Part shown: positions 13,094-64,000 of the stretch, one piece after another
Layout of the letters: the number at the start of each line of letters is the position of its first letter
Numbering within the stretch: the first letter of the stretch is position 1
Assembly: GCA_963778665.1 (NCBI GenBank)
Contig: CAVZVG010000003.1
Location: 192,813 to 256,812 of the forward strand
Source: an uncultured Gammaproteobacteria bacterium
GTDB taxonomy: Bacteria > Pseudomonadota > Gammaproteobacteria > JBBQDK01
DNA: 64,000 nucleotides
Reading direction: 5' to 3'
The notes under the pieces: generated by a model
The model's database searches: none
Seen by the model: only the letters and a program-made list of their open reading frames with translations
What the model was told of the DNA's origin: nothing
Program-made: the position numbers and the translations under genes

Positions 13094-13126
13094 GTCACAA
13101 GGATAGCTTCGGTAGAGAGAAAAATA

Positions 13127-13837: not shown

Positions 13838-13852
13838 TGCTAAAGGATAGAT

Positions 13853-14397: not shown

Positions 14398-14413
14398 CTC
14401 AAAAGGACACATC

Positions 14414-14764: not shown

Positions 14765-14769
14765 GGCGA

Positions 14770-14831
14770 GCTAACAAGCGCTTGGAGGCGGACGCGCAAA
14801 AGCAACGCGCCGCTTAAGTTGTTCGTTAGCT
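14770..14831 (+). repeat. attC 9 (R'' GCTAACA; R' GTTAGCT 14825)
   Basis: Read directly; shares TTGGAGGCGGACGCG with attC 15. Confidence 0.7.
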
Positions 14832-14843
14832 CCTAAAAATAAT

Positions 14844-15218
14844 ATGTTCATATTTAACTCGCAAAATGGAGATCCAATGCTTCTTGATTCTATTCAAGGG
14901 TTGCGTGATCTATGCGAGCGGTTTGTTCGGTTTCTAGAGTCATCGTCACAAGAGGTTTCGTTCCCGGCAATTACAGTCGGCGATCCAGCACCCTATGAGG
15001 AGCTTCTTGGTGGTCTGCGCGTCAAGAAAGATGAGAGCAATAATTGTCTATCCTTCTCAAATGACGGGTGGCTACTGTTATCGGCAACACACAAAGACCT
15101 TTCTGATTTCAGCAAGGCGCTGCTCGTAAAGAAAGATGGTGACCATAATCATTGGTATAGCCGTCCAGTTTCGCTCATCATAGAAGCAGATGAATGGAGG
15201 GCAAGCAGTGAGAGCTAA
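14844..15218 (+). CDS. cassette 10: hypothetical protein (124 aa)
   Basis: ORF track entry. Confidence 0.45.
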   Translation: MFIFNSQNGDPMLLDSIQGLRDLCERFVRFLESSSQEVSFPAITVGDPAPYEELLGGLRVKKDESNNCLSFSNDGWLLLSATHKDLSDFSKALLVKKDGDHNHWYSRPVSLIIEADEWRASSES

Positions 15219-15290
15219 CAAGCCAATCAAATTCGCTCCCTTCGGTCGCCGGACGTCGCTTCCGCTCCGCCGTTTATTGGAACGTTAGAT
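15214..15290 (+). repeat. attC 10 (R'' GCTAACA; R' GTTAGAT 15284)
   Basis: Paralogue of attC 4. Confidence 0.7.
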
Positions 15291-15301
15291 TTAGGAAGAA
15301 T

Positions 15302-15786
15302 ATGGAAGACATAATCAAAATTTTAGGAGGTACTGCGATAGCAATTGGTGCAGTAGCATGGCTTATAAAAGCCCTAGTGAGCCACTTGCTAGGTAAAGAT
15401 GTTGAAATATTTAAGTCTAAAATAAAATATGAAGCAGAGCATGGCAATCACCTCTTGATGCAAAAAATAGAACTATATAAAGAAGCATCTAATCCCATTA
15501 TTGACTTAATTGTAAAAGCACAACACCAAGGAACTTTAAGAAAAAAGAGGATCTACAAAAATTTGATAAAGATCGTCTTGCAACAACTTCGCTATTAGCA
15601 ATGTTCGCACCCGCTGAAGTATTTGATGAATTTAATAATATGATTGATTGTGTTTATGATTCCTTTGAAGGAAAGCAGGAATGGTCATTTAATACATTTC
15701 GGATTAAAGCGGTATCATTTCTGAGCAAAGTCAGAAAAGACATTGGGTTATTTGAAGATGTACTATCTTACAAAGGGACAAGATAA
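15302..15786 (+). pseudogene. cassette 11: ~160-aa protein with N-terminal TM helix, split by a frameshift at an A6 tract (15541-15546) into ORFs 15302-15598 and 15601-15786
   Basis: The second reading frame is open from 15505, so a single slip in the A-run joins ..GTLRKK to EDLQKFDKDRLATTSLLAMFAPAEVF.. Confidence 0.5.
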
Positions 15787-15787
15787 A

Positions 15788-15863
15788 TATAACAAGCGGG
15801 TCAAGGTCGCTTGCGGTCGCTGGGATAGCCAAAATGCGGCGGCCCCTTACCCTATCGTTAGAT
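15788..15863 (+). repeat. attC 11 (R'' TATAACA; R' GTTAGAT 15857)
   Basis: R''/R' pair read directly. Confidence 0.7.
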
Positions 15864-16440
15864 GCTCGCAAGGAAACGCATCACATGGCCACTGAAGAAG
15901 ACAGCACACCAGAGAATCGCGCACGACGCGTCGAGAAGCAGTGGCGCCACGAGGAACGCGCGCTTAGCAGCACACATGCCTTCTGGGAACACTGGTCGCG
16001 CTGCACGGCGCAATTGCCGGCTTAGCTGGTGTCCTAGTAGCTCTGCCATCGACTGAATTCCCGCCGCTTGCATTCGCGGTCATGGGGCTTCTATCGATAG
16101 GGTCTGTCTCCGCTTTGGCCGCATAAACGCGCTCTCGATAAAGGCAGACGAAGCTCGCGCGGCACATTTCGCAGTGACGAGCAGGCAAAAATGGCCGGAT
16201 GATTTTGACTCGAATAGATCTGATGGAGAGTCAAAGGCCTTAGAGCAAGAGTACAAGCGAGAACGATCGATCATTGAGCCGGTCGCGCTGTGGTTTCTCT
16301 TGGTTAACGCATTGATCTTTGCCATCTTCGCCGCATTGCCTAGCCTGTGCCGGGCGTGCATCTAACACATCGCTGGAGCGCACGCGTGGGATATAAAGTG
16401 CCAAGCCCAAACCGTTGCAGCCGCGCACCTAGCTCAACCG
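15858..16440 (+). other. cassette 12 (583 bp, GC ~55%): coding content ambiguous
   Basis: Candidate ORFs are + strand 15885-16025 (47 aa) and 16174-16365 (63 aa, hydrophobic), and - strand 16080-16361 (93 aa). None is convincing. Confidence 0.3.
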
Positions 16441-16446
16441 TTAGAT
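16362..16446 (+). repeat. attC 12 (R'' TCTAACA; R' GTTAGAT 16440)
   Basis: R''/R' pair read directly. Confidence 0.65.
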
Positions 16447-16455
16447 TCCAAAACT

Positions 16456-16791
16456 ATGAATACCAGACCAAAAAATCATTTGTTAATACTGGTCGTTTTG
16501 CTGGCAGTACTATTTCCTGTTCACACAATCGCAGCTTCAATTGAGAGGGCTGACAAAAAGGATGTCGAGATGCTACTTAATGCGGCCACTAGCATGAACT
16601 CCGCATATTGGGCCTCATTCATAGGTGAAACCAGAGGCAGGGTGTACATTGAATATACCACTGCAATTCAATCAGACAGCTTATTTTCCAATGAACCAAA
16701 ACACGTAGTTTATTGGCTACCTTCATCTGAATTAACAAAAGAACAACTTGAGAAATTCAAGGAATATAAGAAAAAATATGAAACACATTAG
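16456..16791 (+). CDS. cassette 13: secreted protein with signal peptide (111 aa)
   Basis: MNTRPKNHLLILVVLLAVLFPVHTIAAS.. looks like a typical signal peptide. Confidence 0.5.
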   Translation: MNTRPKNHLLILVVLLAVLFPVHTIAASIERADKKDVEMLLNAATSMNSAYWASFIGETRGRVYIEYTTAIQSDSLFSNEPKHVVYWLPSSELTKEQLEKFKEYKKKYETH

Positions 16792-16819
16792 GGGCGGGAG
16801 TCACTTAATAAAAAATCAT

Positions 16820-16908
16820 CTAACATCGCGTTCGAGGCCGACGCGGTGAGACATCACATCGTTTCCTGTTGTGCTCGTTCCCCGCGCGGGTTAACGCGGA
16901 CGTTAGGC
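16820..16908 (+). repeat. attC 13 (R'' TCTAACA; R' GTTAGGC 16902)
   Basis: R''/R' pair read directly. Confidence 0.65.
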
Positions 16909-16913
16909 GCGAG

Positions 16914-17180
16914 ATGAAAACAGGTATTACGTTAACTGTTATAGGCGGGCTTATGGTGGCAGCACCTGGAATACTGCTCGCAATACTGGCTATCCGCGTA
17001 GTGATTATTGAGTTGGGAATGTCCAGTCTGGTGCCATATGGTCAAGGCATGGTGTATGGTGCATTCGGAATGGCAGTTGTTATGTTCCTATTCATTGGTG
17101 TACCGGGGTTGTTTATTTTGCGAGCAGGTATGAGAAGCATCACATTACACAAAAATGAAATCAGTAACACTCATGCATAG
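16914..17180 (+). CDS. cassette 14: small membrane protein (88 aa, 2-3 TM)
   Basis: ATG 16914 (MKTGITLTVIGGLMVAAPGILLAILAI..). The ORF track's start at 16869 lies inside attC 13. Confidence 0.45.
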   Translation: MKTGITLTVIGGLMVAAPGILLAILAIRVVIIELGMSSLVPYGQGMVYGAFGMAVVMFLFIGVPGLFILRAGMRSITLHKNEISNTHA

Positions 17181-17187
17181 TCTTGCG

Positions 17188-17249
17188 CCTAACAATTCGG
17201 CCCAGTGCAACGGCTGCTACGCAGCCGCGCCTGGCCTTAGCCGTTAAGC
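17188..17249 (+). repeat. attC 14 (R'' CCTAACA; R' GTTAAGC 17243)
   Basis: R''/R' pair read directly. Confidence 0.65.
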
Positions 17250-17335
17250 GTTGTTCGCGTATCCTGTGATTCCAACCTGAAAAAAAATCGGCGGAACAGC
17301 CCAATCACAGACTTCAACAAAAAAATAAAAGGAGA

Positions 17336-17914
17336 ATGAATATGAGTAAAGTAATCGTAACCGAATTCGTCTCACTCGACGGCATTATTGAGGCCCCAGG
17401 CGGAGGCGAGGGCTTTAAACACGCAGGTTGGACGTTCAAGATCAGTCGCGGGAAGGATGGCGACCAATTCAAGCTCGACGAGACCCGCGACTCCGAGGCT
17501 CTGCTGTTGGGGCGGGTGACATATGAAGGCTTTGCCGCAGCCTGGCCGTCGCTGAAGGGCGACTTCGCTGATAAGTTAAACAGCATGCCCAAGTTCGTCG
17601 TCTCCTCGACACTCAAGGAGCCTGAATGGAACAACTCGACGGTGCTCAAGGGCGACGTGGTGGAGGAGGTCCAGAAGCTAAGGCAGAGGCTGGGTGGGAA
17701 CATCGTCGTCCACGGCAGCGCCCAACTCGTGCAGACGCTTGTCGAACACAACCTCGTTGACGAGTTGCGGCTGATGGTCTTCCCTGTCATCCTCGGGACG
17801 GGCAAGCGCCTCTTTGGCAACATGAGCGACAAAAAGTCCCTTCGGCTAGTCAGCTCGAAGACGGTTGGCGACGGCGTCGTCATCCTCATCTATGAGCTAG
17901 CACGGGATAAGTAA
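17336..17914 (+). CDS. cassette 15: dihydrofolate-reductase-like protein (RibD C-terminal domain family), GC ~55%
   Basis: SKVIVTEFVSLDGIIEAP..LLLGRVTYEGFAAAWP..MPKFVVSSTL..NIVVHGSAQLVQTLVEHNLVDELRLMVFPVILGTGKRLF matches the RibD_C/YwjB-type DHFR-like family. Confidence 0.6.
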   Translation: MNMSKVIVTEFVSLDGIIEAPGGGEGFKHAGWTFKISRGKDGDQFKLDETRDSEALLLGRVTYEGFAAAWPSLKGDFADKLNSMPKFVVSSTLKEPEWNNSTVLKGDVVEEVQKLRQRLGGNIVVHGSAQLVQTLVEHNLVDELRLMVFPVILGTGKRLFGNMSDKKSLRLVSSKTVGDGVVILIYELARDK

Positions 17915-17953
17915 GCAAGCCTTCCCTGAGGCGGCGACCACGAATCCGCAACG

Positions 17954-17985
17954 CCTAACAAAGAGCTGGAGGCGACGCGTTATAT
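17954..17985 (+). repeat. attC 15, atypically short (32 bp; R'' CCTAACA, R' GTTATAT 17979)
   Basis: Resembles only the left half of attC 9; probably internally deleted. Confidence 0.5.
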
Positions 17986-18008
17986 ATAGGGTAATTTGGT
18001 AATCGTCA

Positions 18009-18260
18009 ATGCCTGAAAGAACTCTAATAATTCTTGTAGGATTAATCTTGTCAGTGTTAGTTGGTTGCGTCATGATCAGGAATTGGCCGAAATCTGGGAA
18101 GATGGGTGTAAACACAAAAACAGTACATTGCCCTCGTTGTGGATTGAAAGCGCCGATGGTAAGAAAGCCAAAGAACCTAAGACAGATACTTTGGGGTGGA
18201 TGGACTTGCGAAGGTTGTAATTGTGAGTTCGATAAGTACGGAAATGAAGTTAATACATAA
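18009..18260 (+). CDS. cassette 16: membrane-anchored zinc-ribbon protein (83 aa, CPRC..CEGC)
   Basis: ORF track entry; N-terminal TM helix plus two CxxC pairs. Confidence 0.5.
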   Translation: MPERTLIILVGLILSVLVGCVMIRNWPKSGKMGVNTKTVHCPRCGLKAPMVRKPKNLRQILWGGWTCEGCNCEFDKYGNEVNT

Positions 18261-18329
18261 CAAGTCATTCGAGTACGCCCCTTCGAGGCCGGACGCGCTG
18301 ACGCGCGTCACACAAATCCGAACTTATGC
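18256..18329 (+). repeat. attC 16 with mutated core (R'' CATAACA; R' CTTATGC instead of GTTATG)
   Basis: Paralogue of attC 3. The conserved G of GTT is replaced by C. Confidence 0.55.
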
Positions 18330-18347
18330 ATCAAGGAGAAGATTCGA

Positions 18348-18743
18348 TTGAAATCACATCCGGTAATCACGCAGATTGAAAGGGCGGATAAAGCAATTGT
18401 TGCTGAAGATTTCGATACGCTTCTCGATATTTATACTGATGATGCAGTACTGGTTGTTGAGCCAGGAAGAAATGCTGTTGGAAAAGATGACATTAGAAAA
18501 GCATTTGAGGCCATAGCGGTATATTTTAGAAATGGGCTGCATGTTGAACAAGATGGCTTGGAGATTCTTGAGTCAGGTAATACTGCCTTAGTATTGGCAA
18601 ATACAATTCTATTAGCGCCTAATTACCCTGCAATAACTCGTAAAGCGACATACGTATTTATTAAGTCCTCTAACGGTAATTGGCTTTGTTCAATAGACAA
18701 TTCATATGGTCATGAAATTATTGGTACAGGAAATAATGCATAA
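18348..18743 (+). CDS. cassette 17: NTF2-like/SnoaL-like (DUF4440-type) protein, TTG start with AAGGAG RBS
   Basis: ..DFDTLLDIYTDDAVLVVEPGRNAVGKDDIRKAFEAI.. is the SnoaL-like fold pattern. Confidence 0.5.
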   Translation: MKSHPVITQIERADKAIVAEDFDTLLDIYTDDAVLVVEPGRNAVGKDDIRKAFEAIAVYFRNGLHVEQDGLEILESGNTALVLANTILLAPNYPAITRKATYVFIKSSNGNWLCSIDNSYGHEIIGTGNNA

Positions 18744-18809
18744 CAAGTCTCTCGTTTGGACGCAAACTACGCTGCGCTTCGTTTGCGCTGAACAGCTTCA
18801 ACGTTAGAC
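18739..18809 (+). repeat. attC 17 (R'' CATAACA; R' GTTAGAC 18803)
   Basis: R''/R' pair read directly. Confidence 0.7.
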
Positions 18810-18853
18810 ATCACAAGCGCGCACATTACTACCCCACACTGATCGGAGGCCCC

Positions 18854-19279
18854 ATGAACGCCACAAAGATCAAAGTAGGTCAATTGGGTATCGACTACAT
18901 CGTGGATGGCTCTCACACGGAGAGTCTCGGAATGTTCGAACTGACAGTGCCTCCAGGATCGAACGTTCCACCGCCGCATAGTCACACCAACAACGACGAA
19001 TGCGTGTATGTCCTCGCCGGAACACTTCGGTACTCGGTCGGAGCTGAGACGCGCGATCTGACAGTAGGGCAAGCGATGAGCACGCCAAGAGGCGCGGTTC
19101 ACGCTTTCTCGAACCCCTTCGCCGAGACCGCTCGCGCCTTGATCGTCATGTCTCCGGACATCGGAGCCCAGTACTTCAAGGACGTCGCTGCGGTGATCAA
19201 TGCCGGAGGGCCTCCGGACAAGGCCGCCCTGGTCTCGGTGATGTCCAGGTATGGGCTTGTCCCGGCTGCGCCGGCGTGA
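18854..19279 (+). CDS. cassette 18: cupin-domain protein (141 aa; GC ~60%)
   Basis: Cupin motifs PPHSHTNNDECVYVLAGT and GAVHAF. Confidence 0.55.
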   Translation: MNATKIKVGQLGIDYIVDGSHTESLGMFELTVPPGSNVPPPHSHTNNDECVYVLAGTLRYSVGAETRDLTVGQAMSTPRGAVHAFSNPFAETARALIVMSPDIGAQYFKDVAAVINAGGPPDKAALVSVMSRYGLVPAAPA

Positions 19280-19349
19280 CCACACCCAAGCCTTCCATCG
19301 AGCGGACGTCCTCCGGCAAGCTTCGTTTGCTTGCCGCCGCCGCTCATGT
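19279..19349 (+). repeat. attC 18 remnant (degenerate; homologous to left half of attC 2)
   Basis: CAAGCCTTCCATCGAGCGG matches CAAGCTTCCATCGGAGCGG of attC 2. R'' is ACCACAC and R' is CTCATGT. Confidence 0.4.
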
Positions 19350-19387
19350 CGAATGTCAGGCCCAGCAAGTACAGAGAGGAGAGCGCA

Positions 19388-19732
19388 ATGAGCAACGAAC
19401 AGGTGGCGCCCGAGACGAAAGGCGTTACGGTGAAGTTACTTTCAACGGTTGATCTTGGCCCTGAGATCGAGGGCATGGCAGGGCGCCAACTTCGAATGCG
19501 TATGGTGACTATCGAGCCTGGAGGCGTCTTCGGCCCGATTCACGACCATAAAGACAGACCAGGCACTGTCTACATACTGCAAGGAACGATCACTGACCAT
19601 CGAAATGGAGTCGCTACGGACTATGGGCCGGGAGTGGGCTGGCCCGAGGATAGGAACACCACACACTGGCTTGAGAACAGAGGAACGATTCCGGCGGTGG
19701 AGATCTCGGTCGATATAGTGAGGCATGAGTAA
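19388..19732 (+). CDS. cassette 19: cupin-domain protein (114 aa from ATG 19388, RBS AGAGGAGAG)
   Basis: GPIHDHKDRPGTVYILQGT..NTTHWLENRG matches the cupin_2 pattern. Confidence 0.55.
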   Translation: MSNEQVAPETKGVTVKLLSTVDLGPEIEGMAGRQLRMRMVTIEPGGVFGPIHDHKDRPGTVYILQGTITDHRNGVATDYGPGVGWPEDRNTTHWLENRGTIPAVEISVDIVRHE

Positions 19733-19762
19733 GCTCAGGCCCGACATCTGACACGGTCGGGT

Positions 19763-19867
19763 CTAACACACGGATCAACCGGACGCGATAGTCGCTACGC
19801 TTTGGTGGACACCCTGAACTAATGATTCAGGAGTGTCAAAGATGCCGAAGCCAGGCGTTGGTTGTTT
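19763..19867 (+). repeat. attC 19 (R'' TCTAACA; R' GTTGGTT/GTTGTTT)
   Basis: Paralogue of the attC-like sequence at 22322-22440 (shared TTTGGTGGACACCYTGAA..GGAGTGTMAAGATGCC). Confidence 0.55.
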
Positions 19868-19885
19868 TAAATTGGGAATAAATTC

Positions 19886-20284
19886 ATGAAGAAATTAAAA
19901 AATACAGCGTACAACGCATTGGTTATAGTAGAAGATATTGGCTTACTGGTCATAGCCATTTCGACAGTCATTGCAATGAGCTTTGAAATTGTATCTATGT
20001 TTGAAGCCATGAAGGTAACCTTGGCAGACCTTTTGTTACTTTTTATATACCTTGAGGTATTGGCAATGATTGGAATCTACCTTAAGTCAGGGCAGCTGCC
20101 TGTTCGTATGCCCCTTTACATTGCAATAGTAGCGGTGGCACGTTACATGATTCTTGATATGAAGAATTTGGATACATTAAGAGTTCTTGGTCTTTCAGGC
20201 GCAGTATTTATTCTTGCTGTATCTATTCTCGCTATTCGATATGGCCATATTAAATTCCCATATGATGATAAAGAAGACAGCTAA
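19886..20284 (+). CDS. psiE: cassette 20: phosphate-starvation-inducible protein PsiE family
   Basis: LFIYLEVLAMIGIYLKSGQLPVRMPLYIAIVAVARYMILD aligns with E. coli PsiE [41 protein letters not shown]. Confidence 0.65.
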   Translation: MKKLKNTAYNALVIVEDIGLLVIAISTVIAMSFEIVSMFEAMKVTLADLLLLFIYLEVLAMIGIYLKSGQLPVRMPLYIAIVAVARYMILDMKNLDTLRVLGLSGAVFILAVSILAIRYGHIKFPYDDKEDS

Positions 20285-20353
20285 CAAGCCAATCAAGTTT
20301 TCCTGTAATCAGCACGGGCTTGGACGTCACAAAAAGCATGGCGCCACTTATTT
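20280..20353 (+). repeat. attC remnant (R'' GCTAACAAGCCAATCAAG.. like attC 10; R' degenerate CTTATTT)
   Basis: Left end is identical to the attC 10 start. The right half is lost or degenerate. Confidence 0.35.
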
Positions 20354-20387
20354 ATGTCGGTTTGCCTTTTTTATATAGACGATATTC

Positions 20388-20561
20388 ATGCAAGCAGAGA
20401 AGCAGTTTCAATTGTTGGAATCAGTCCTTAACAAATGCAAGGGAGAGATTGGTAAAGATTTTGAAAGTTATAGAAATCATGTTTGCCGTATTGTTGATTT
20501 GTCAGGGTGTCCGGCGAGCGTTTCTGCATCGTTTCCCTTGCGGAATATTCTTTATCCGTAG
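20388..20561 (+). CDS. cassette 21: small ORF (57 aa, MQAEKQFQLLESVLNKCKGEIGKDFESYRNHVCRIVDLSGCP..)
   Basis: Below the ORF-track size cut-off; it is the only plausible ORF in this cassette. Confidence 0.3.
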   Translation: MQAEKQFQLLESVLNKCKGEIGKDFESYRNHVCRIVDLSGCPASVSASFPLRNILYP

Positions 20562-20638
20562 AAGGGAAATAATTTCAGTAATGGCAGTCACGCATACTGC
20601 ACGAAACTCCGCAAAGTGGCGCACGCCTTAGGACGCCC

Positions 20639-20722
20639 CATAACAAATCAGTCGAGTATGCCCGCCATTCTGGCGGGGCCCTACGCCTGCTTCGCAGGTG
20701 CGTCTCAATTCAATCGTTAATT
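20639..20722 (+). repeat. attC 21 (R'' CATAACA; R' GTTAATT 20716)
   Basis: R''/R' pair with an internal palindrome. Confidence 0.65.
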
Positions 20723-20746
20723 GCCAAAATAATGAAGCAATCCTAA

Positions 20747-21505
20747 ATGATTATGAAACTGCTCGAATTCCCACATTCTCACTATTGCGAAAAAGCGCGC
20801 TGGGCACTCGACTACAAAGGGATGCCATTTCAGGCCGTGGCAATTATGCCGGGGTTTCACATGATAACGGTACGCAAGTACGCTCCGGATACATCTGTTC
20901 CAGTGTTATTGGACCATGGTGAAGCAGTGCAAGGTTCGAGCGAAATCATAAACTACCTCGAACAGAGGCAGGCGTCATACCCTTTGAATCCTGCGGATGC
21001 TGATGAGCTCCGAGCATGCTTGGAAATAGAGCGCGCGATGGATGAAAGACTTGGGGAGAATATTCGTCAGGTTTTATACAATAGCCTGCTGGCTTACCCG
21101 GATTTTATCCGACATTGCTTTACCCATCCGATGTCCCGATTACGACAACTGATTTTCAGTCTCTTTTACCCGATTCTACGATACAAGATATATCAAACCT
21201 ATGTGATTTCCGCTGCGAAGGTAGAACAGGCGAGACGAGATTTCGATGTTGCCATGAGTGAAATAGAGAACATCCTTGAACAGAGACAGTATCTCGTTGG
21301 TGAGCGATTTACCCGTGCGGACTTGTCGGTAGCATCAATGCTCTCATTGCTTGTTATGCCGCCGGAGCATCCGTTTCCATGGCAAGAAATACCCGATCCG
21401 CAGGCAAGAGACTTTCTTGAAGGGTTTCAAGATCATCCCGTGTCTGAATGGGTTCGTAAAATGTATCGATGCCATCGATTGCGCGAGAGAGCACACTCCG
21501 AATGA
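20747..21505 (+). CDS. cassette 22: glutathione S-transferase family protein
   Basis: N-terminal thioredoxin-like GST fold (KLLEFPHSHYCEKARWALDYKGMPFQAV..VPVLLDHGE) followed by a helical GST C-terminal domain. Confidence 0.6.
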   Translation: MIMKLLEFPHSHYCEKARWALDYKGMPFQAVAIMPGFHMITVRKYAPDTSVPVLLDHGEAVQGSSEIINYLEQRQASYPLNPADADELRACLEIERAMDERLGENIRQVLYNSLLAYPDFIRHCFTHPMSRLRQLIFSLFYPILRYKIYQTYVISAAKVEQARRDFDVAMSEIENILEQRQYLVGERFTRADLSVASMLSLLVMPPEHPFPWQEIPDPQARDFLEGFQDHPVSEWVRKMYRCHRLRERAHSE

Positions 21506-21520
21506 TTAGCCATTCAGCCG

Positions 21521-21578
21521 GCGCGTCAAGTCATTCGCTTAGCTCATTGGGACGCTCAAAAGCTGCGCATTTATCGCG
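21521..21578 (+). repeat. attC 22 remnant (paralogue of attC 16; R'' decayed to GCGTCAA, R' CTTATGC)
   Basis: ..CAAGTCATTCG..CTTATGCGAACC mirrors attC 16. Confidence 0.4.
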
Positions 21579-21622
21579 ACCCTTATGCGAACCTTGGTCG
21601 TCGTGAGAACATCGACCCGATC

Positions 21623-22309
21623 ATGAGACTTCACAAGCTGGCTGACGGAATCTGGGTGCTGGACGGCAACCCCATTTCTTTTGTTACTTTCCCATACGAA
21701 ATACGCTCTACCGTTATCGAAATAGGGGGAGGTGAGCTGTTTATTCATTCTCCGGTGCAATTATCCGCAGTGGATCTATTGAAGACGCTGCCTGGTCAGG
21801 TGAAATACATCGTTTCGCCAAATAAGCTCCACAGTCTGTTTCTTGGGGATTGGAAAAAGGCGTTTCCGGAAGCCAAGCTTTACGCGCCGCCTGGCTTGAA
21901 AGCCAAGCGTCCGAACTTATCGTTCTATAAGGAGCTTGCAGATGAACCGGAACCGGAGTGGCGGGAAGTATTAAAGCAAAAGATAGTTCGAGGAAGTTGG
22001 TTCATGTCGGAAGTCGTTTTTTTTCACGCACCATCGGAAACCCTGATCCTTGGGGATCTGATAGAAAACCACAACCCACTGAGATTTGGGTTGCTTCACC
22101 GAGCAATTGGTTCAGCGAACGCCATGCTCGCGCCAAACGGAACCACGCCGCGCAATTATCGATGGACGTTCTTTCGACGCAAAGAGGTTCGCGAGGATTT
22201 GCAAGAAATTATGAGCTGGAATGCCAAACGCGTTGTTATGTCCCACGGCCCGATCGTGGAAATCGGAGCGCAAGAGTTTTTGAGGAATGCATTTCAATGG
22301 GCGCTGTAG
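21623..22309 (+). CDS. cassette 23: DUF4336 family protein (metallo-beta-lactamase-like fold)
   Basis: ELFIHSPVQL..KYIVSPNKLHSLFLGDWKKAFPEAKLYAPPGL..EVVFFHAPSETLILGDL matches the DUF4336 pattern. Confidence 0.55.
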   Translation: MRLHKLADGIWVLDGNPISFVTFPYEIRSTVIEIGGGELFIHSPVQLSAVDLLKTLPGQVKYIVSPNKLHSLFLGDWKKAFPEAKLYAPPGLKAKRPNLSFYKELADEPEPEWREVLKQKIVRGSWFMSEVVFFHAPSETLILGDLIENHNPLRFGLLHRAIGSANAMLAPNGTTPRNYRWTFFRRKEVREDLQEIMSWNAKRVVMSHGPIVEIGAQEFLRNAFQWAL

Positions 22310-26550: not shown

Positions 26551-26745
26551 CCTGAAAAATGATTTCTGAAAAGCATTCACCACAGAGGACACGGAGAGGT
26601 CTTTTTGAAAAGCATTGACCACGGGGAACACGGGGGACACGGGGATTACTGCTGAAAACCCCGTGCCCCCCGTGTTCCCCGTGGTAGTCGCTGTTCAATC
26701 TGGAAACAAATATTTCTCCGTGTCCTCCGTGGTGAATGCTTTTTG
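26551..26745. repeat. nested-hairpin repeat, family A (copy A1)
   Basis: Outer inverted repeat AAAAGCATTCACCACAGAGGACACGGAGAG / TTCTCCGTGTCCTCCGTGGTGAATGCTTTT. Inner inverted repeat ACCACGGGGAACACGGGGGACACGGGG / CCCCGTGCCCCCCGTGTTCCCCGTGGT. Confidence 0.8.
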
Positions 26746-26842
26746 TTAGGCACACGTAGAGTGCTTGTAGCCTAATCAACTGACTTCTGAGTGATTGCTG
26801 AATATTGTGTAATCAAGGACACGCCGATCTGCGAGGGTCCGA

Positions 26843-28050: not shown

Positions 28051-29955
28051 ACAATGACGCCGATGAATATCGCCACGGAAAATGTCATGGACGACATCCA
28101 CACCACACTGCGCCGCGTGTTCGGCTTTCCCGCCTTCCGTCCTCACCAGCAGGAGATTATCGAGGGTCTGCTGGAAGGGAAGGATGCCTTTGTGCTGATG
28201 CCGACGGGCGGCGGCAAATCGCTGTGTTACCAGATCCCGGCCCTGCACCGGCGCGGTGTCGGCATCGTGGTCTCGCCGCTGATTTCGCTGATGAAGGATC
28301 AGGTCGATGCGCTGCGTGCCAACGGTGTCGCCGCGGCCTTCTACAACTCGGCGCTGGAATCGCAGGAGGCCCGTCAGGTGCTGGCGCGGCTGCATGCCGA
28401 TGAGCTCGATCTGCTCTATGTCAGTCCCGAGCGACTGCTGACGCCGGCCTTCCTGGACCGCATCAGCGATATCGACATCGCCCTGTTCGCCATCGACGAG
28501 GCGCATTGCGTCTCGCAATGGGGACATGATTTCCGTCGCGAATATGCCCAGCTCGGCATGCTGCGCGAACACTTCCCCGCCGTGCCGCTGGTGGCGCTCA
28601 CGGCCACCGCCGATGCGCAGACCCGCGAGGATATCGTGCGCGTGCTCGGCCTGAGTGCGGCGACCCGTTATGTCACCGGCTTCGACCGGCCCAATATCCG
28701 TTATACCGTGCTGGAGAAGCACAAACCCTTCGATCAGTTGACGCGCTTTCTGCTGAATCGCCGCAGCCAGGCGGGCATCGTCTATGCCTTGAGCCGCAAA
28801 CGCGTCGACGAGATCGCGCAGAAGCTGCAGGACGAGGGCCTGCGCGCCGCGGCCTATCATGCCGGCCTGCCTGCGTCTCAGCGGCAGGATGTGCAGGAGC
28901 GCTTTCTGCGCGACGATGTGCTGATCGTCGTCGCGACGGTGGCCTTCGGCATGGGTATCGACAAACCCAACGTGCGCTTCGTCGTGCACTACGACATACC
29001 CAAGAACATCGAAGGCTATTACCAGGAAACCGGCCGCGCCGGCCGCGACGGTCTGCCCGCCGAGGCGCTGCTGCTGTACGGCGCGCAGGATATCATCACC
29101 GTGCGGCGCCTGATCGAGAACAGTGAAAGTCAGGAGCAGCAGCGCATCGAACTGCACAAGCTCAATGCCATGGCGGCGCTCGCCGAGAGCGTCAGCTGCC
29201 GACGCCGCGTGCTGCTGAATTATTTCGGCGAGCGCCTGGAACAGGATTGCGGCAACTGCGATATCTGCCTGGACCCGCCGGAACGCTTCGATGCCAGCGT
29301 CGATGCGCAGAAGGCCTTGTCCTGCGTCTATCGCGTCGGCCAGCGTTTCGGGGTCAAGCATGTGGTCGATGTGTTGCGCGGCGCGGACAACGAGCGCATC
29401 CGCTCTTTGGGTCATCACACGCTGTCGACCTACGGCGTGGGCAGCGACAGGAGCGAACCGGAATGGACGTCCATCCTGCGCCAGCTCATTCATCACGGTT
29501 ATCTGATCCAGGACATCGCCAACTACTCGGTGCTGAATCTGACCGAGGCGGCGCGGCCGCTGCTGCGCGGCGAGCAGCAGATCCAGCTCGCCAAGCCGCG
29601 CATCCGCGAACAGATCAAGAAGAAGGTGACGAAGTCACCGGCCAGTCAGGGGCCATACGACGAGGCGCTGTTCGAGGAGCTGCGCGCATTGCGCAAACGC
29701 CTGGCGGATACGCAAGGCGTGCCGCCCTACATCGTGTTCGGTGATGCCACGCTGATACAGATGGCGCGTGACAAACCGATGAGCGAAGGTGATCTGCTCG
29801 GCGTCATCGGCGTCGGCCAGCACAAGCTGGAGAAATACGGCAAGGATTTTCTGGATGCGATAACAGAGTACAGCCTGCCATCTTCAAACCGTAAGTCCCC
29901 TCTCCCTCCGGGAGAGGGCCAGGGTGAGGGGGGTAATGATCGCGAAGTCCAGTGA
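28051..29955 (+). CDS. recQ: ATP-dependent DNA helicase RecQ (start ambiguous: 28051, 28060 or 28087)
   Basis: FGFPAFRPHQQEIIEGLLEGKDAFVLMPTGGGKSLCYQIPAL.., DEAH, zinc-binding and HRDC regions align with E. coli RecQ. The last ~20 codons run into REP element D1. Confidence 0.9.
   Translation, partial: TMTPMNIATENVMDDIHTTLRRVFGFPAFRPHQQEIIEGLLEGKDAFVLMPTGGGKSLCYQIPALHRRGVGIVVSPLISLMKDQVDALRANGVAAAFYNSALESQEARQVLARLHADELDLLYVSPERLLTPAFLDRISDIDIALFAIDEAHCVSQWGHDFRREYAQLGMLREHFPAVPLVALTATADAQTREDIVRVLGLSAATRYVTGFDRPNIRYTVLEKHKPFDQLTRFLLNRRSQAGIVYALSRKRVDEIAQKLQDEGLRAAAYHAGLPASQRQDVQERFLRDDVLIVVATVAFGMGIDKPNVRFVVHYDIPKNIEGYYQETGRAGRDGLPAEALLLYGAQDIITVRRLIENSESQEQQRIELHKLNAMAALAESVSCRRRVLLNYFGERLEQDCGNCDICLDPPERFDASVDAQKALSCVYRVGQRFGVKHVVDVLRGADNERIRSLGHHTLSTYGVGSDRSEPEWTSILRQLIHHGYLIQDIANYSVLNLTEAARPLLRGEQQIQLAKPRIREQIKKKVTKSPASQGPYDEALFEELRALRKRLADTQGVPPYIVFGDATLIQMARDKPMSEGDLLGVIGVGQHKLEKYGKDFLDAITEYSLPSSNRKSPLPPGEGQGEGGNDREVQ
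29897..29934. repeat. REP-like palindrome, family D (copy D1)
   Basis: CCCCTCTCCCTCC GGGAGAGGGCCAGGGTGAGGGGGG; overlaps the recQ 3' end. Confidence 0.7.
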
Positions 29956-30048: not shown

Positions 30049-30084
30049 CCCCCTCACCCTGGCCCTCTCCCGAAGGGAGAGGGG
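30049..30084. repeat. REP-like palindrome, family D (copy D2, inverted orientation)
   Basis: CCCCTCACCCTGGCCCTCTCCCGAAGGGAGAGGGG read directly. Confidence 0.7.
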
Positions 30085-30136
30085 ATTATTTCTTTTTACG
30101 GCTGTTCAATTTTTCAGAATTTTGCAGGCGAAGGGC

Positions 30137-30290
30137 GGGCAAACGCGGTTTTATTTGCCCACAGAGATTCGGAGCTGGATTGGAACACGTGGGCAACGAG
30201 TTGCCCACCCTGCTTGGCTCTGGATTATACAAACCCCGGCTCCCCTCTCCCACGCGTGGGAGAGGGGTTGGGGGAGAGGGAAGTTAACCG
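30137..30290. repeat. composite tandem repeat unit 1 (three hairpins: GGGCAAA..TTTGCCC, GTGGGCAA..TTGCCCAC, CCCCTCTCCC..GGGAGAGGGG)
   Basis: ~75% identical to unit 2 (30327-30486), with the same hairpin order. Confidence 0.65.
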
Positions 30291-30326: not shown

Positions 30327-30486
30327 GACAAACGGGTTGTATTTGCCCACGCGGATTCAGCACCGGAATGGAGCATGTGGGCAACTTGTGCCCACCCTAC
30401 TTGGCTGTCTGACAGCGGTACCGGGCGTTGTGGCCGCGATTCGCCCTCTCCCCCGGCCCCTCTCCCGCTGGCGGGAGAGGGGAGTT
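30327..30486. repeat. composite tandem repeat unit 2 (ends with REP D4 CCCCTCTCCCGCTGGCGGGAGAGGGG)
   Basis: Homologous to unit 1; abuts the rhlE stop. Confidence 0.65.
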
Positions 30487-32024: not shown

Positions 32025-32220
32025 GCGGGGTGATGCTCCTAGTATGGCCTACCCAGCGTTGTTCACGTGGGCCGGTCTAGGCGGGATTGTTTGAGTGCTT
32101 CGAGGCGAGGCAGAGAGCTTGTCGCTACGGGGTCGGTGCAGACCGGAGTGCGCCGAGTGGCGGCACTATAACAGATAAAGTGGTGCGTGCGTGCGGTTAA
32201 TGCAGAAAAAAGCATTTTGG

Positions 32221-32428
32221 GCCGCCAAGGACGCCAAGAACGCCAAGAACGCCAAGAAATGCAAAAATAGCTGCTCTGACTGATTGTCATTCCCGCATGT
32301 GCGGAATGACAGAGTTCGAATCAATCAATAGTGCGAAAAATGATACGGCCTTGTCTCTGCCGTCCCGATATACGGTGTAGTGGATGCTCGAATCGGATTT
32401 TCTTGGCGCTCTTGGCGTCCTTGGCGGC
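32221..32428. repeat. MITE-like element, family B (copy B1, 208 bp) with 9-bp iteron-like inverted termini and internal palindrome 32285-32311
   Basis: Left end GCCGCCAAGGACGCCAAGAACGCCAAGAACGCCAAGAAA; right end TCTTGGCGCTCTTGGCGTCCTTGGCGGC. The internal sequence TGTCATTCCCGCATGTGCGGAATGACA is a perfect inverted repeat. Confidence 0.7.
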
Positions 32429-32458
32429 TCAAAAGAAATTTCATAGGATAATGCGCCC

Positions 32459-40814: not shown

Positions 40815-40871
40815 ATCCTGTTGATCGGATCGAGTGCCGGATGGGTGTTTTATGCCAAGAGCGACAAAAAT

Positions 40872-40998
40872 AAAAAAAAACCGTCAACCGCCAAGGACGC
40901 CAAGAGCGCCAAGATCTTTCCTCTTGAATTTCAAAACAGATTTTCTTGGCGTCCTTAGCGTCCTTGGCGGTTCAAGTAATTAATCAGGGTTTCCTTAA
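40872..40998. repeat. MITE-like element, family B (copy B2; core 40888-40970)
   Basis: CCGCCAAGGACGCCAAGAGCGCCAAGA ..62 bp.. TCTTGGCGTCCTTAGCGTCCTTGGCGG plus shared flank TTCAAGTAATTAATCAGGGTTTCCTTAA. Lies in the amiE upstream region. Confidence 0.75.
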
Positions 40999-41046
40999 TT
41001 GGAAGACAGCTGACATGAAAACCATTTGCAGACAGAGGAGACGAAC

Positions 41047-43489: not shown

Positions 43490-43672
43490 GCGCCTGAGAA
43501 AACAAAAGCCATCACCACGGAGGACACGGAGAATTTTTTGTCCAATGCAAAAAAGCGATTACCACGGGGGACACGGGGAACACGAGGTTATCAGCGGTTA
43601 CCCTCGTGTTCCCCGTAGTGAATGCTTTTAATAAACATCTCCGTGTCCTCCGTGGTCAATGCTTTTCAGAAA
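43490..43672. repeat. nested-hairpin repeat, family A (copy A2)
   Basis: ACCACGGAGGACACGGAGAA.., ACCACGGGGGACACGGGGAACACGAGG-loop-CCTCGTGTTCCCCGTAGTG, ..TCTCCGTGTCCTCCGTGGT. The loop GGTTATCAGCGGTTACC is the reverse complement of the A6 loop. Confidence 0.8.
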
Positions 43673-49387: not shown

Positions 49388-49417
49388 GTTCCGTGTCCTC
49401 CGTGGTGATGGCTTTTT
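49388..49417. repeat. family A repeat fragment (copy A3: TTCCGTGTCCTCCGTGGTGATGGCTTTTT)
   Basis: Matches the outer arm of family A. Confidence 0.6.
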
Positions 49418-52244: not shown

Positions 52245-52313
52245 GTCTGACAAAACGATTTCTGAAAAGCATTGAACACGGAGAACACAGAGAAACTTTT
52301 TGTAAAAAGCATT
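52245..52313. repeat. family A repeat, copy A4 left half (interrupted by MITE B3)
   Basis: AAAAGCATTGAACACGGAGAACACAGAGAAACTTTTTGTAAAAAGCATT read directly. Confidence 0.6.
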
Positions 52314-52448
52314 AAGGAAGGTCTGAAAAAATCGTCAACCGCCAAGGACGCCAAGAGCGCCAAGATATTTCTTCTTGAATTTCAAAACAGATTTCTTGGC
52401 GTCCTTGGCGTACTTGGCGGTTCAAGTAATTAATCAGGGTTTCCTTAA
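52314..52448. repeat. MITE-like element, family B (copy B3; core 52339-52420), inserted inside family A copy A4
   Basis: ~95% identical to B2, including the flank TTCAAGTAATTAATCAGGGTTTCCTTAA. Outer ends TTAAGGAAGG../..GGTTTCCTTAA form an inverted repeat. Confidence 0.7.
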
Positions 52449-52535
52449 AGCGATTACCACGAGGGCACGGGAATCAAGTGGGGTTCCCGGTTATTCCCTG
52501 TGTTCTCCGTGGTGATGGCTTTTTCTCAGGCGCTC
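52449..52535. repeat. family A repeat, copy A4 right half
   Basis: AGCGATTACCACGAGGGCACGGG..CCCGGTTATTCCCTGTGTTCTCCGTGGTGATGGCTTTTT read directly. Confidence 0.6.
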
Positions 52536-53061: not shown

Positions 53062-53100
53062 TCGGCAGTGCGTTTCGATTCACGTCTTTCCTTCCTTTGA

Positions 53101-53290
53101 GCGCCTGAAAGAAAACCATTACCACGGAGGACACGGAGAGGTTCTATTGAAAAAGCATTGACCACTGGGGATACGGGGAACACAGGGATACCGACTGGTA
53201 AGCCCCGTGTTCCCCGTGTCCCCGGTGCGGTAATCGCTTTTCCTCATCGACAAATATTCTCCGTGTCCTCCGTGGTAATGGTTATTTATT
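53101..53290. repeat. nested-hairpin repeat, family A (copy A5)
   Basis: ACCACGGAGGACACGGAGAGG .. ACCACTGGGGATACGGGGAACACAGGG-loop-CCCCGTGTTCCCCGTGTCCCCGGTG .. TCTCCGTGTCCTCCGTGGT. Lies between the convergent zinc-ribbon gene and nhaD. Confidence 0.8.
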
Positions 53291-56191: not shown

Positions 56192-56340
56192 GAAAAGCAT
56201 TGACCACGGGGAACACGGGGAACACGGGGGTAACCGCTGATAACCCCGTGTTCCCCGTGTTCCCCGTGGTCATCGCTTTAATGCTTTTTACAAAAACTCT
56301 CCGTGTTCTCCGTGGTGATGGCTTTTTCTCAGGCGCTCTT
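56192..56340. repeat. nested-hairpin repeat, family A (copy A6)
   Basis: ACCACGGGGAACACGGGGAACACGGGGG-TAACCGCTGATAACC-CCGTGTTCCCCGTGTTCCCCGTGGT plus TCTCCGTGTTCTCCGTGGTGATGGCTTTTT. Confidence 0.8.
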
Positions 56341-61452: not shown

Positions 61453-62190
61453 ATGCTTCACAACATCAGGCTAGTGCGCGGAACCCGAACCATGACCTTG
61501 AAATTCAGTGAAACACCCGGCGCTTTCGAGCGGCAGTTGCAGCGTCAGCACGGCAACCCGCTGTTTTCCCCGGCGGCGCGCGTCGTTACGCAAGATCAGA
61601 TTGACGCCGCGCGGCACCGCGATCAGGAAGAGCGGCGCGACTTTCAGGCGGCCTTGCGCGCGACGCTGCGCGAAGCGCTGGACATGCCGCCGCAGGTGGA
61701 GAGCGACGTGCTGCTCAAGCTGAAAGAGCGCCTGGATCAGCTCTACGATCAGTGCGCCGGGCTGCCCGGCGATCATGACAACGAGAAGTTGAGCCTGACG
61801 CGCATGATCGGCGTCATCATGAAGGCGGTCTGGACCGGGGCCGGTGATGATCCGCGTGCCCGCGCCGAACTGGAACAGGAAGAACACGCCCGCACCCTGC
61901 ATCACGAGTTGTTGCAGCAGCCACTGGTCGCCAACCTGCTGCGACCCGATTCACCGATCGCCGAAGACGCGCTCGTACCCACGCTGCTCAGCGAGACCGA
62001 GGACGCCGTGCGCACGGTACTCATGCTGTTCGATGCAAGGCAGTTGCAGGCCTTATGCCAGCAGGCGCGCGAACTGCTGGAGCAGCTCGATTCCACCGGA
62101 CAGGCATTGCCCGAAGCAAGGCGGCGCCTGCAGCAGATGGAAGAGGTCGCGCATCACGCCGGCCTGATCGATCCCACCGCCACGCAATAA
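61453..62190 (+). CDS. hypothetical protein (245 aa; start possibly 61495)
   Basis: ORF track entry; no motif recognised. Confidence 0.4.
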   Translation: MLHNIRLVRGTRTMTLKFSETPGAFERQLQRQHGNPLFSPAARVVTQDQIDAARHRDQEERRDFQAALRATLREALDMPPQVESDVLLKLKERLDQLYDQCAGLPGDHDNEKLSLTRMIGVIMKAVWTGAGDDPRARAELEQEEHARTLHHELLQQPLVANLLRPDSPIAEDALVPTLLSETEDAVRTVLMLFDARQLQALCQQARELLEQLDSTGQALPEARRRLQQMEEVAHHAGLIDPTATQ

Positions 62191-62192
62191 AT

Positions 62193-62271
62193 GTAGCCTG
62201 GGTTGAGCGCAGCGAAACCCGGGTCTGTGCCAAGATTGTTCCCGGGTTTCGCTGCGCTCAACCCAGGCTAC
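62193..62271. repeat. long hairpin repeat, family C (copy C2)
   Basis: Stem identical to C1; loop TCTGTGCCAAGATTGTT. Confidence 0.8.
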
Positions 62272-62276
62272 ATTAT

Positions 62277-62600
62277 CTACGTTATCACCAATCGAAACTT
62301 CACGACGAACAGCTCACCGCAATCTCGCCGGCCCAATCCGGCGGCGCGGCGGCGTAGTTGCCGGTCCGGTTGCTCGTCGTAGGGGTGTTGCAATACCGCC
62401 AGCAAGCGATCGATCTCGCTGAAATCGTGTGCCTGGGCGCGGCGGATGGCGGTCTCGGCCAGGTAATTGCGCAATACGTATTTCGGATTGACACGATTCA
62501 TGCGTGCGCGCCGCTCCTGATCATCGCTGTGCTCGGCAGCCAGGCGCGCGCGGTAGTCCGCGGCCCAGTCATCGAAGGCGGTGCGATCCAGGAACTGAAT
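62277..62600 (-). pseudogene. duplicated 3' fragment of selO (frameshifted relative to the functional copy)
   Basis: Encodes ..[49 protein letters not shown], then goes out of frame because of the 2-bp indel. Confidence 0.7.
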
Positions 62601-62604
62601 AAAT

Positions 62605-62683
62605 GTAGCCTGGGTTGAGCATAGCGAAACCCGGGAACAGTGGTGCCACAGACCCGGGTTTCGCTATGCTCAACCCAGGCTAC
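62605..62683. repeat. long hairpin repeat, family C (copy C3, with compensatory stem changes GCATAGCG/CGCTATGC)
   Basis: 31-bp stem preserved despite two substitutions per arm; loop AACAGTGGTGCCACAGA. Confidence 0.8.
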
Positions 62684-62711
62684 GTTATCTACGTTATCAC
62701 CAATCGAGACT

Positions 62712-64000
62712 TCACGACGAACAGCTCACTGCAATCTCGCCGGCCCAATCCGGCGGCGCGGCGGCGTAGTCTTGCCGGTCCGGTTGCTCGTCGTAGGGGT
62801 GTTGCAATACCGCCAGCAAGCGATCGATCTCGCTGAAATCGTGTGCCTGGGCGCGGCGGATGGCGGTCTCGGCCAGGTAATTGCGCAATACGTATTTCGG
62901 ATTGACACGATTCATGCGTGCGCGCCGCTCCTGATCATCGCTGTGCTCGGCAGCCAGGCGCGCGCGGTAGTCCGCGGCCCAGTCGTCGAAGGCGGTGCGA
63001 TCCAGGAACTGATCACGCAGTGCGGTATTGTGCGCGTCCGGGCTGGAATCGAAATCGCCGAGGGCACGGAACAGCAGGGTGTAATCGACACGGTTGGCAT
63101 GCATCGCGTGCAGCAGTGTATGGGCCAGCTCCTCATCGGCGGGATGCGCGCTGCGCAGTCCCAGCTTGGCGCGCAGTTCCGCCAGGTAGTACATAGTGAA
63201 TTGTGCTTCATACTCCGCCAGCAGTTCGGTGCAACGCGCGGCCGGTAGCAGCGGCGTCAATGCCTGCGCCAGCCGACCCAGATTCCACAGTCCGACGCCC
63301 GGTTGCTGATCGAAGGCGTAACGGCCGCGGTGATCGGAGTGATTGCAGATGAAACCCGGATCATACGTGTCGAGAAAGCCGTAAGGGCCGTAATCCAGGG
63401 TCAGTCCCAGGATCGACATGTTATCGGTATTCATCACGCCGTGCGCGAAACCCACCGACTGCCATTGCGCCATCAGTCGCGCCGTGCGTCGAATCACCGC
63501 GGCAAGCAGCAGGGCGTAGCGATCCTCGGCGTCCGCCAGTTCCGGGTAATGTGCGTCGATGACGAAATCCGCGAGTTGCTTGATCGCGTCGTACTGGTGC
63601 CGGTGATAGAACACCTCGAAACTGCCGAAGCGCACGTGCGAAGGCGCCATGCGCAGCAATACCGCGGCGGTTTCTATGGTTTCGCGATACACCTCTTCAT
63701 CGCTGCCGACGATGCACAGCGCGCGCGTGGTGGGAATGCCCAGGCCGTGCAGGGCTTCGCTGCACAGGTATTCGCGGATGGTCGAACGCAGCACGGCACG
63801 GCCGTCGCCGGAGCGCGAATAGGGCGTCGGTCCCGCGCCTTTGAGTTGCAGTTCCCAGCGTTCGCCCGCGTTGTTGCGTACCGCGCCGAGCAGTATGGCG
63901 CGGCCGTCGCCGAGCTGCGGAACGAAGTGGCCGAACTGATGGCCGGCATAGAGCATGGCCAGCGGCTCGCTGCCGGCCAGCAGACGATTGCCGACCAGAT
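62712..64000 (-). CDS. selO: protein adenylyltransferase SelO (YdiU/UPF0061), N-terminus beyond window end
   Basis: ..LAGSEPLAMLYAGHQFGHFVPQLGDGRAILLG.. through C-terminal ..[18 protein letters not shown] matches SelO. Frame is open to position 64000. Confidence 0.85.
   Translation of the reverse strand, partial: LVGNRLLAGSEPLAMLYAGHQFGHFVPQLGDGRAILLGAVRNNAGERWELQLKGAGPTPYSRSGDGRAVLRSTIREYLCSEALHGLGIPTTRALCIVGSDEEVYRETIETAAVLLRMAPSHVRFGSFEVFYHRHQYDAIKQLADFVIDAHYPELADAEDRYALLLAAVIRRTARLMAQWQSVGFAHGVMNTDNMSILGLTLDYGPYGFLDTYDPGFICNHSDHRGRYAFDQQPGVGLWNLGRLAQALTPLLPAARCTELLAEYEAQFTMYYLAELRAKLGLRSAHPADEELAHTLLHAMHANRVDYTLLFRALGDFDSSPDAHNTALRDQFLDRTAFDDWAADYRARLAAEHSDDQERRARMNRVNPKYVLRNYLAETAIRRAQAHDFSEIDRLLAVLQHPYDEQPDRQDYAAAPPDWAGEIAVSCSS

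Follow-up and report, generated by a model that had tools for sequence, protein, structure and literature searches.

Three short inverted-repeat elements, designated B1, B2 and B3, are ORF-less and probably represent MITE-like, non-autonomous derivatives of a palindromic element that is widespread in bacteria and, when complete, carries a GxxExxY gene. They lie in the window, i.e. the whole stretch of DNA that was analysed (64 kb of the uncultured Gammaproteobacteria contig CAVZVG010000003.1), to which all statements about the source genome refer. The parent element class is apparently undescribed in the open-access literature, within which no account of the repeats, or of an association between such arrays and GxxExxY genes, was found.

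Each of the three copies (B1, 32217-32432; B2, 40872-40996; B3, 52314-52446) contains inverted arms in which a 9-bp unit (CGCCAAGNN) recurs two to four times, and Tandem Repeats Finder recovered a period of 9 in six of six arms, at 32223-32258 (4.0 copies) and 32401-32426 in B1, 40889-40914 and 40945-40969 in B2, and 52340-52365 and 52395-52419 in B3. The original prediction had reported three copies built from inverted arrays of 9-bp units, and repeat finding, shuffles and folding bore out both the places and the design, with the ends refined such that B2 stops at 40996 and B3 at 52446. Across the window, CCAAGRRCGCCAAG matched 21 times with up to two mismatches, compared with 1.94 matches expected and a count of 21 reached by 0 of 100 shuffles; 13 of these matches, including all ten exact ones, fall inside B1-B3. 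A regular expression for two consecutive units, (CRCNRRGNN)x2, likewise returned 23 arrays in the window versus 1.2 in simulated sequence. Folding energies were -51.3 kcal/mol for the plus strand and -60.7 for the minus strand of B2 (z about -9 relative to shuffles), -64.8 and -61.3 kcal/mol for B3 (z -10.1 and -9.3), and -101.1 kcal/mol for B1 (z -7.9).

B2 (40872..40996) is composed of a left flank, left arm, loop, right arm and a right flank ending in ...CAGGGTTTCCTT, and is without the left terminus AAGGAAGGTCTGA that is present in B3. Its left module (40883..40915, plus strand) begins with the prefix GTCAAC followed by CGCCAAGGA CGCCAAGAG CGCCAAGAT, and its right module (40943..40975), read on the minus strand, begins with the prefix TTGAAC followed by CGCCAAGGA CGCTAAGGA CGCCAAGAA. 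The intervening AT-rich loop, CTTTCCTCTTGAATTTCAAAACAGATT (40916..40942), contains a small inner palindrome, TTGAA-T-TTCAA, and is common to B3 and to an element in another gammaproteobacterial MAG (locus L036). B3 (52314..52446) is a full-length copy of the B2 type, with arms at 52340-52366 and 52393-52419, a loop at 52367-52392, and the left and right termini AAGGAAGGTCTGA... and ...TCAGGGTTTCCTT. The two copies are 96% identical over a 69-nt stretch comprising the left part and centre and 96% identical over a 57-nt right part, upholding the earlier proposal of a common centre and right flank. B1 (32217..32432) has arms as in B2 and B3 around a different interior of 141 nt; its left module consists of TTGGGC and four units (32223-32258), its right module of 32400-32426 and GCTCAA, and its outer motif AAAAGCATT is common to all the 9-mer families of the window. 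Within that interior, at 32285-32311, lies a TGTC-tagged REP-like hairpin (TGTCATTCCCGCATGTGCGGAATGACA) present as a single copy in the window; this had been described as a perfect 27-bp palindrome, and is really a hairpin with 9 perfect outer pairs.

B1 is located between a DEAD-box helicase gene on the minus strand and a zinc-ribbon ORF on the plus strand, B2 in the livF-amiE spacer, 72 nt past the ABC-transporter ATPase gene and 76 nt ahead of the amidase start, and B3 beside an EAL/HDOD gene. One copy had been assigned to a divergent region between EAL and zinc-ribbon genes; the zinc-ribbon ORF, together with the DEAD-box helicase, does flank B1, but the EAL/HDOD gene adjoins B3 and not B1.

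To place the three copies in a wider context, one genome per species was scanned for GCCAAGNNCGCCAAGNNCGCCAAG, yielding at least 120 loci. Among the matches listed, about half were AK-rich coding repeats of Actinobacteria and similar, irrelevant here, and the rest were non-coding arrays with the same prefix. At least 10 phyla have the module, T-[G/T]-A-[A/G]-C and then (CGCCAAGNN)n, in their intergenic DNA, the non-coding arrays deriving from Planctomycetota, Chloroflexota, Cyanobacteria, Acidobacteriota, Myxococcota, Lentisphaerota and Kiritimatiellia, and further from Verrucomicrobiota, Armatimonadota, WOR-3 and the Alpha-, Beta- and Gammaproteobacteria. The matches listed include 41 hairpin elements, with two to five units per arm and loops of 11-170 nt that are mutually unrelated in sequence. 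The five bases ahead of the first unit have the logo T-[GT]-A-[AG]-C and always contain TGA, TAA or TAG, and in 8 of 67 arrays a frame of 100 codons or more terminates at this prefix stop, compared with 2.1% at random positions. Array subfamilies are lineage-specific; the Burkholderiales copies, for instance, begin TTAGC-CGCCAAGGC.

The unit itself is a fixed heptamer with a free dinucleotide (CGCCAAG-NN), and the dinucleotide varies between elements. Judging from the sequence, such a pattern fits the original suggestion of tandem protein binding at the 9-bp units. Among the matches listed, the free positions form Watson-Crick pairs with the opposite arm in 65% of cells (74 of 114), and because of this base pairing a structural constraint appears to be present as well.

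Phage contigs and plasmids contained very few of the arrays. A viral collection gave at least 120 pattern matches, only two of which were of the non-coding type among the matches listed, the rest being AK-rich coding repeats, and a GxxExxY search of viral contigs gave no match. Plasmids yielded two weak array matches only, and the B2/B3 loop found no match in metagenomes. One locus of the viral-contig collection (L232:5466-5720), of a different lineage, has outer CGCCAAG arms around an inner hairpin of the CGCAAAG family, arranged head-to-head; composite architecture of the kind seen in the window is therefore not peculiar to its genome.

The identity of the parent element rests on the gene found between such arms. 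At 11 loci, 9-nt-array arms accompany a 130-147-aa GxxExxY nuclease gene (PF13366, TIGR04256) or a remnant of one. At L095, from a Myxococcales MAG, a 139-aa full GxxExxY ORF lies amid CGCCAAG arrays, inserted between fliR and flhB, and matches PF13366 (PDDEXK_3, E 5e-40) and TIGR04256 ‘GxxExxY protein’. This ORF, and then a profile, was searched against the array-selected loci, the TIRYT control loci, the viral loci, the relatives' loci and the window, which revealed three further cases, all within the array-selected loci: a full GxxExxY ORF between CGCAGAGG-type arms at L106, a remnant of 45 N-terminal residues at L044, flanked by an array on one side and the opposite arm's terminal GGCGGTTCAA on the other, which is an internal-deletion product, and a C-terminal remnant beside an arm at L012. 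Four loci chosen for their repeats (L095, L106, L044 and L012) thus carry a GxxExxY gene or remnant of one. No such gene or remnant was detected in the 64-kb window at E<=1.

The association was also approached in reverse, by taking protein homologues regardless of their DNA and fetching seven independent loci. Arms were present at the ORF borders in all seven (L326, L336, L344, L354, L356, L358 and L359), which include a Verrucomicrobiota locus (L336), a Bacillota MAG with CACCAAG/CACGAAG units (L354) and an Ignavibacteria locus at which the ORF start is ATGAACCGCCAA (L356), while L359 has the layout TTGAACCGCCAAGACGCCAGGGACGCCAAG - ORF - CTTGGCGTCCCTGGCGTCTTGGCGGTTCAA. ATGA-type junctions are frequent (L344, L356), and several GxxExxY N-termini are translated arrays, e.g. 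MNRQNRQSRQT and NRQGRQGRQE. Across the first six protein-chosen loci, heptamer density was 11.5 per kb at the ORF borders versus 0.34 per kb elsewhere in them, and 0.41 per kb in 274 kb of TIRYT control loci. The arm design of the window copies, namely inverted arms with a T-K-A-R-C prefix and two or more CGCCAAGNN-type units, is identical to that of L326, L336, L356, L358 and L359. In place of the transposase-bearing full-length element for which the original prediction had proposed a search, the full-length relatives encode a PD-(D/E)XK nuclease and not a DDE or HuH transposase.

The GxxExxY family comprises 21,350 clusters at 50% identity, with invariant residues D82, E92 and K94 forming the D...ELK catalytic motif and G40, E43 and Y46 forming the GxxExxY motif. 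The structural model is confident (pLDDT 88) and has a minimal PD-(D/E)XK fold, and a fold search with it returned generic PD-(D/E)XK neighbours only, the nearest solved structures being lambda-exonuclease-like enzymes and Cas4; no sequence relative of the GxxExxY protein was found among solved structures. The only comparative study found in the open-access literature gives the function as ‘Unknown’ and reports multiple horizontal transfers (PMC3424549). Many members are tandem double-domain fusions of 250-295 aa, and many lie on contigs of 0.5-1.1 kb, possibly as a result of assembly breaks at the flanking repeats.

An alternative explanation is that the elements serve their host, either as gene-end RNA hairpins (3'-end stabilisers, terminators or translation modulators) or as binding arrays for a host protein. 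Their placement is REP-like: 31 of the 33 classifiable elements adjoin a gene 3' end, often 2-40 nt past the stop codon, and among the matches listed 25 are in tandem, six in convergent and two in divergent positions. Furthermore, the hairpins are very stable, the heptamer is kept across phyla while the loops are free, and the sister families of the window end in AAAAGC...GCTTTT, resembling bidirectional terminators. However, the two divergent cases are B1 and B3 of the window itself, no sense-strand U-tract follows the stem in B2 or B3, no Rfam family was matched beyond chance hairpins, and selection on structure alone would not hold one heptamer constant across lineages as far apart as Cyanobacteria and Proteobacteria. 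In a small sample, single modules showed no preferred orientation with respect to genes.

Host function is also at odds with the turnover seen among relatives. The closest relatives of the amidase are in Gammaproteobacteria MAGs, of which three (L122-124, amidase 90% identical) have an empty livF-amiE spacer of 58 bp, and a fourth (L121, 94% identity) has a CGCAGAGGA-family hairpin in the place of B2. A composite repeat at 43491-43666 of the window is also absent from the syntenic spacer of L121, where unrelated sequence is found. With orthologous sites in close relatives either empty or holding another family, no locus depends on these elements, and a host-serving role accordingly seems unlikely. 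Nor was any evidence obtained for a regulatory role at amiE, as relatives manage without the element in the livF-amiE spacer; B2 most likely sits ahead of amiE as a passenger, without regulating the gene.

An isolated degenerate unit in the window, CCAAGAGCGACAAA (40855..40868, plus strand), preceded by TTTTATG, is at the same position as the left arm of the L121 hairpin and may be the relic of an older element. The L121 hairpin (L121:9820-9920, orthologous to window 40815-41046) has a right flank, GCCCTTTTTGTTAGAC, that resembles the flank of the CACGGAGGA family of the window. Either one family replaced the other in this spacer, or the same spot has been targeted repeatedly.

The elements could instead be classical MITEs, i.e. 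insertion sequences reduced by deletion and mobilised by a DDE transposase, which would bind the terminal inverted repeats and duplicate the target site. Small size, an AT-rich centre and the presence of the B2 type in more than one copy are all consistent with this, as is the insertion site of B3. The window also holds CACGGGGAA and CACGGAGGA arrays of the same 9-nt design as the CGCCAAG family, which form nested composites of outer CACGGAGGA arms and an inner CACGGGGAA hairpin at 26556-26751, 43491-43666 and 53098-53286, and a partial one at 56192-56326. Repeats of the composite type were also marked at 49388-49416 and 52252-52523, and the composites as a group have the bounds AAAAGCATT...AATGCTTTT. 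Alignment with uninterrupted copies demonstrated that B3 sits in a composite, breaking ...AAAAAGCGATTACCAC..., and has the ends AAGGAAGG... and ...TTTCCTT, flanked by an imperfect 8/9-bp duplication (AAAGCATT at 52306..52313 and AAAGCGATT at 52447..52455, both plus strand). Excision of B3 with one copy of the duplication recreates ...AAAAAGCGATTACCAC... as in the composite at 43550, and so restores the interrupted repeat, and the ends of B3 are inverted (AAGGAA...TTCCTT).

This duplication is found at B3 only; B2 is truncated on the left, and there is none at B1 or L036. Against a DDE-driven origin, no consistent duplication occurs in the 41 hairpin elements of other lineages among the matches listed. 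The AAGGAA...TTCCTT termini are present in B2, B3 and L036 and were not seen in other lineages; conservation resides in the inner array and not in the outer termini. A Pfam scan of the window's ORFs found no transposase, and no HuH/Y1 motif was detected there, the sole recombinase being an integron-type integrase (8786-10210). There was no recurrent protein family beside the arrays across 39 loci, no pair of arms 0.4-4 kb apart in the fetched loci encloses a transposase, and the full-length relatives hold the nuclease gene instead. A classical MITE origin is consequently rather improbable. The description as MITE-like stands insofar as these are short, non-autonomous and dispersed inverted-repeat elements; the cognate transposase that it presupposed was found neither in the window nor as a recurrent neighbour.

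It is also conceivable that the short elements arose in place, as GxxExxY cassettes that lost their gene and never moved as a short form. The deletion intermediates at L044 and L012 and the lack of a nuclease gene in the window are in keeping with such decay. However, B2, B3 and L036 have a common loop and flanks at different loci, with the L036 core 92-93% identical, and the same deletion product at separate loci requires copying after the deletion; B3, moreover, cleanly interrupts another repeat. Decay in place is therefore improbable, and the recurrence of one deletion product at two window loci and in L036 indicates that the ORF-less form itself multiplied, a behaviour like that of MITEs or REPINs. 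Compared with B2 and B3, L036 (1578-1700) has its loop turned round within the flanks (core 92-93% on the plus strand, whole element 73-74% on the minus strand), which suggests flipping between inverted arms. Microsatellite-like slippage or chance palindromes without common origin, to which the variable unit number (2 to 5 per arm) might point, are scarcely credible given an excess of about tenfold or more over shuffles, the recurrence of the same prefix and heptamer in many phyla, units within one arm that differ at the free dinucleotide unlike in pure slippage, and the specific association of the arrays with one gene family.

Bacterial MITEs such as Correia/NEMIS, Nezha and the RU-1/ERIC type resemble the array elements in size (about 130-210 bp), in their terminal inverted repeats, AT-rich centre, lack of an ORF and origin by internal deletion, and in the duplication flanking B3. 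They differ in that the parent of the array elements is without a DDE transposase, duplications are not regular, and the inverted repeats are periodic and found across phyla while what remains of each element is specific to its lineage. Homing-endonuclease genes and ORF-bearing 23S rRNA intervening sequences are alike in comprising a small selfish nuclease ORF in a hairpin-forming insert, in multiple copies with patchy spread across phyla and expression from the host transcription unit; the array elements, unlike these, lie outside introns, inteins and rRNA helices, have arms made of 9-nt arrays, and multiply as ORF-less derivatives. The contiguous fixed-core units, direct or inverted, recall MetJ metboxes, the heptads of omega proteins and plasmid iterons, suggesting cooperative binding with one protein per unit, but the arrays occur at hundreds of unrelated sites, instead of a single regulated promoter or origin, with no adjacent regulator or rep gene.

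REP/REPIN sequences with their tyrosine-transposase partners, RAYT (TnpA-REP) or the TIR-flanked TIRYT, have several features in common with the array elements: they too are short, extragenic, many-copy palindromes, mostly downstream of genes and in nested or mosaic clusters (PMC3733652, PMC3116915, PMC6006769), with several families per genome, spread across phyla and a single-gene partner between repeats. By the published family descriptions (PMC3733652, PMC6006769), however, the 9-nt-array arms are without a GTAG, CGTC or CnGA tag; they are tandem 9-nt units that are not themselves palindromic, and the gene between them encodes a PD-(D/E)XK nuclease and not a HuH/Y1 enzyme. TIRYTs were attractive candidates for a partner because their inverted repeats share GGGGWSAS and some of them have a DnaA-like DNA-binding domain (PMC3733652, PMC6006769). 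However, 80 loci (274 kb) retrieved with an alignment of 11 TIRYTs (supplement of PMC3733652) have GGGGTCAGA-type inverted repeats and only five array matches, at chance level, and a TIRYT/RAYT partner was rejected. The repeats of class 3 Y1 genes, with a CnGA foot, are of a different sequence from the arrays.

Several other identities were set aside. A terminator scan found nothing at B2, and T-runs are antisense only and 7-8 nt past the stem, unlike in an intrinsic terminator; a promoter scan at B2 also found nothing. Rfam 15 gave no match in the window at gathering score, only sub-threshold hairpin models of miRNA precursors. A sigma-54 promoter (wrong spacing), DnaA boxes and parS were dropped on sequence alone, and Shine-Dalgarno mimicry on the grounds that SD-like cores are present in only some families. 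As integron attC sites, the elements fail at their ends, GTCAAC and GTTCAAG, which break GTTRRRY, and they lie 10-30 kb from the integron-like region at 8.8-22.3 kb.

That region opens with an integron-type tyrosine recombinase (PF13495 and PF00589) at 8786-10210 on the minus strand, after which come roughly 12 kb of small, low-GC3 plus-strand ORFs, extending to 22309 and separated by attC-like repeats (12145/15207; 12627/15214/18256/20639; 11024/13039); 8786-22309 is probably a chromosomal integron cassette array. The window additionally contains GTAG-tagged REP-like palindromes (ATGTAGCCTGGGTTGAGCGCAGCGAAACCCGGG...) at 3934-4025, 62191-62282 and 62603-62694, two of them within a 414-bp tandem duplication (62186-63012), and a palindromic family of CCCTCTCCC / GGGAGAGGG blocks at 511-553, 29896-29932, 30049-30093, 30240-30280 and 30444-30484, which may be related to the G/C-rich triplex motifs of PMC4666352.

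Under the preferred explanation, that B1-B3 are ORF-less copies of a nuclease-bearing element, each arm is a module consisting of the stop-codon prefix T-[G/T]-A-[A/G]-C and two to four CGCCAAG-NN units, and two such modules arranged tail to tail form a hairpin, the loop of which holds the small PD-(D/E)XK GxxExxY gene in the full-length relatives. Internal deletion of the full-length element would generate short-looped derivatives like B1-B3. A trans-acting GxxExxY nuclease, assumed to be encoded outside the window in this organism, would recognise the heptamers or the extruded hairpin and may move or copy the ORF-less elements, with the usual landing place being just past a host stop codon and any effects on neighbouring genes such as amiE being incidental. 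The prefix stop, the ATGA-type junctions and the position past host stops together suggest insertion at the 3' ends of host genes, with read-through or coupled expression. Since most of the free dinucleotides are paired, the constraint may lie in structure and not in recognition of each unit by a protein, and the nuclease could either be a passenger or itself target hairpin loops. A bolder possibility, advanced here tentatively, is that the arrays and GxxExxY together represent a previously unrecognised class of mobile element, in which a PD-(D/E)XK enzyme, and not a DDE, HuH, serine or tyrosine recombinase, would recognise the heptamers or cruciform, insert at host stop codons and spawn ORF-less hairpins in at least 10 phyla.

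The link to the nuclease proposes an origin for intergenic repeats found from Cyanobacteria to Planctomycetota and Proteobacteria. It may also explain a source of spurious ORFs, these ORF-less hairpins being sequences that give ‘NRQDAKDAK / LGVLGVLG’-type ORFs in annotations, and possibly of breaks in metagenome assemblies. Should the nuclease prove to move the elements, a new enzymatic route to bacterial mobile DNA would be added. The tie between GxxExxY and a defined, recognisable DNA structure provides a concrete substrate for testing a large family that is annotated without a function.
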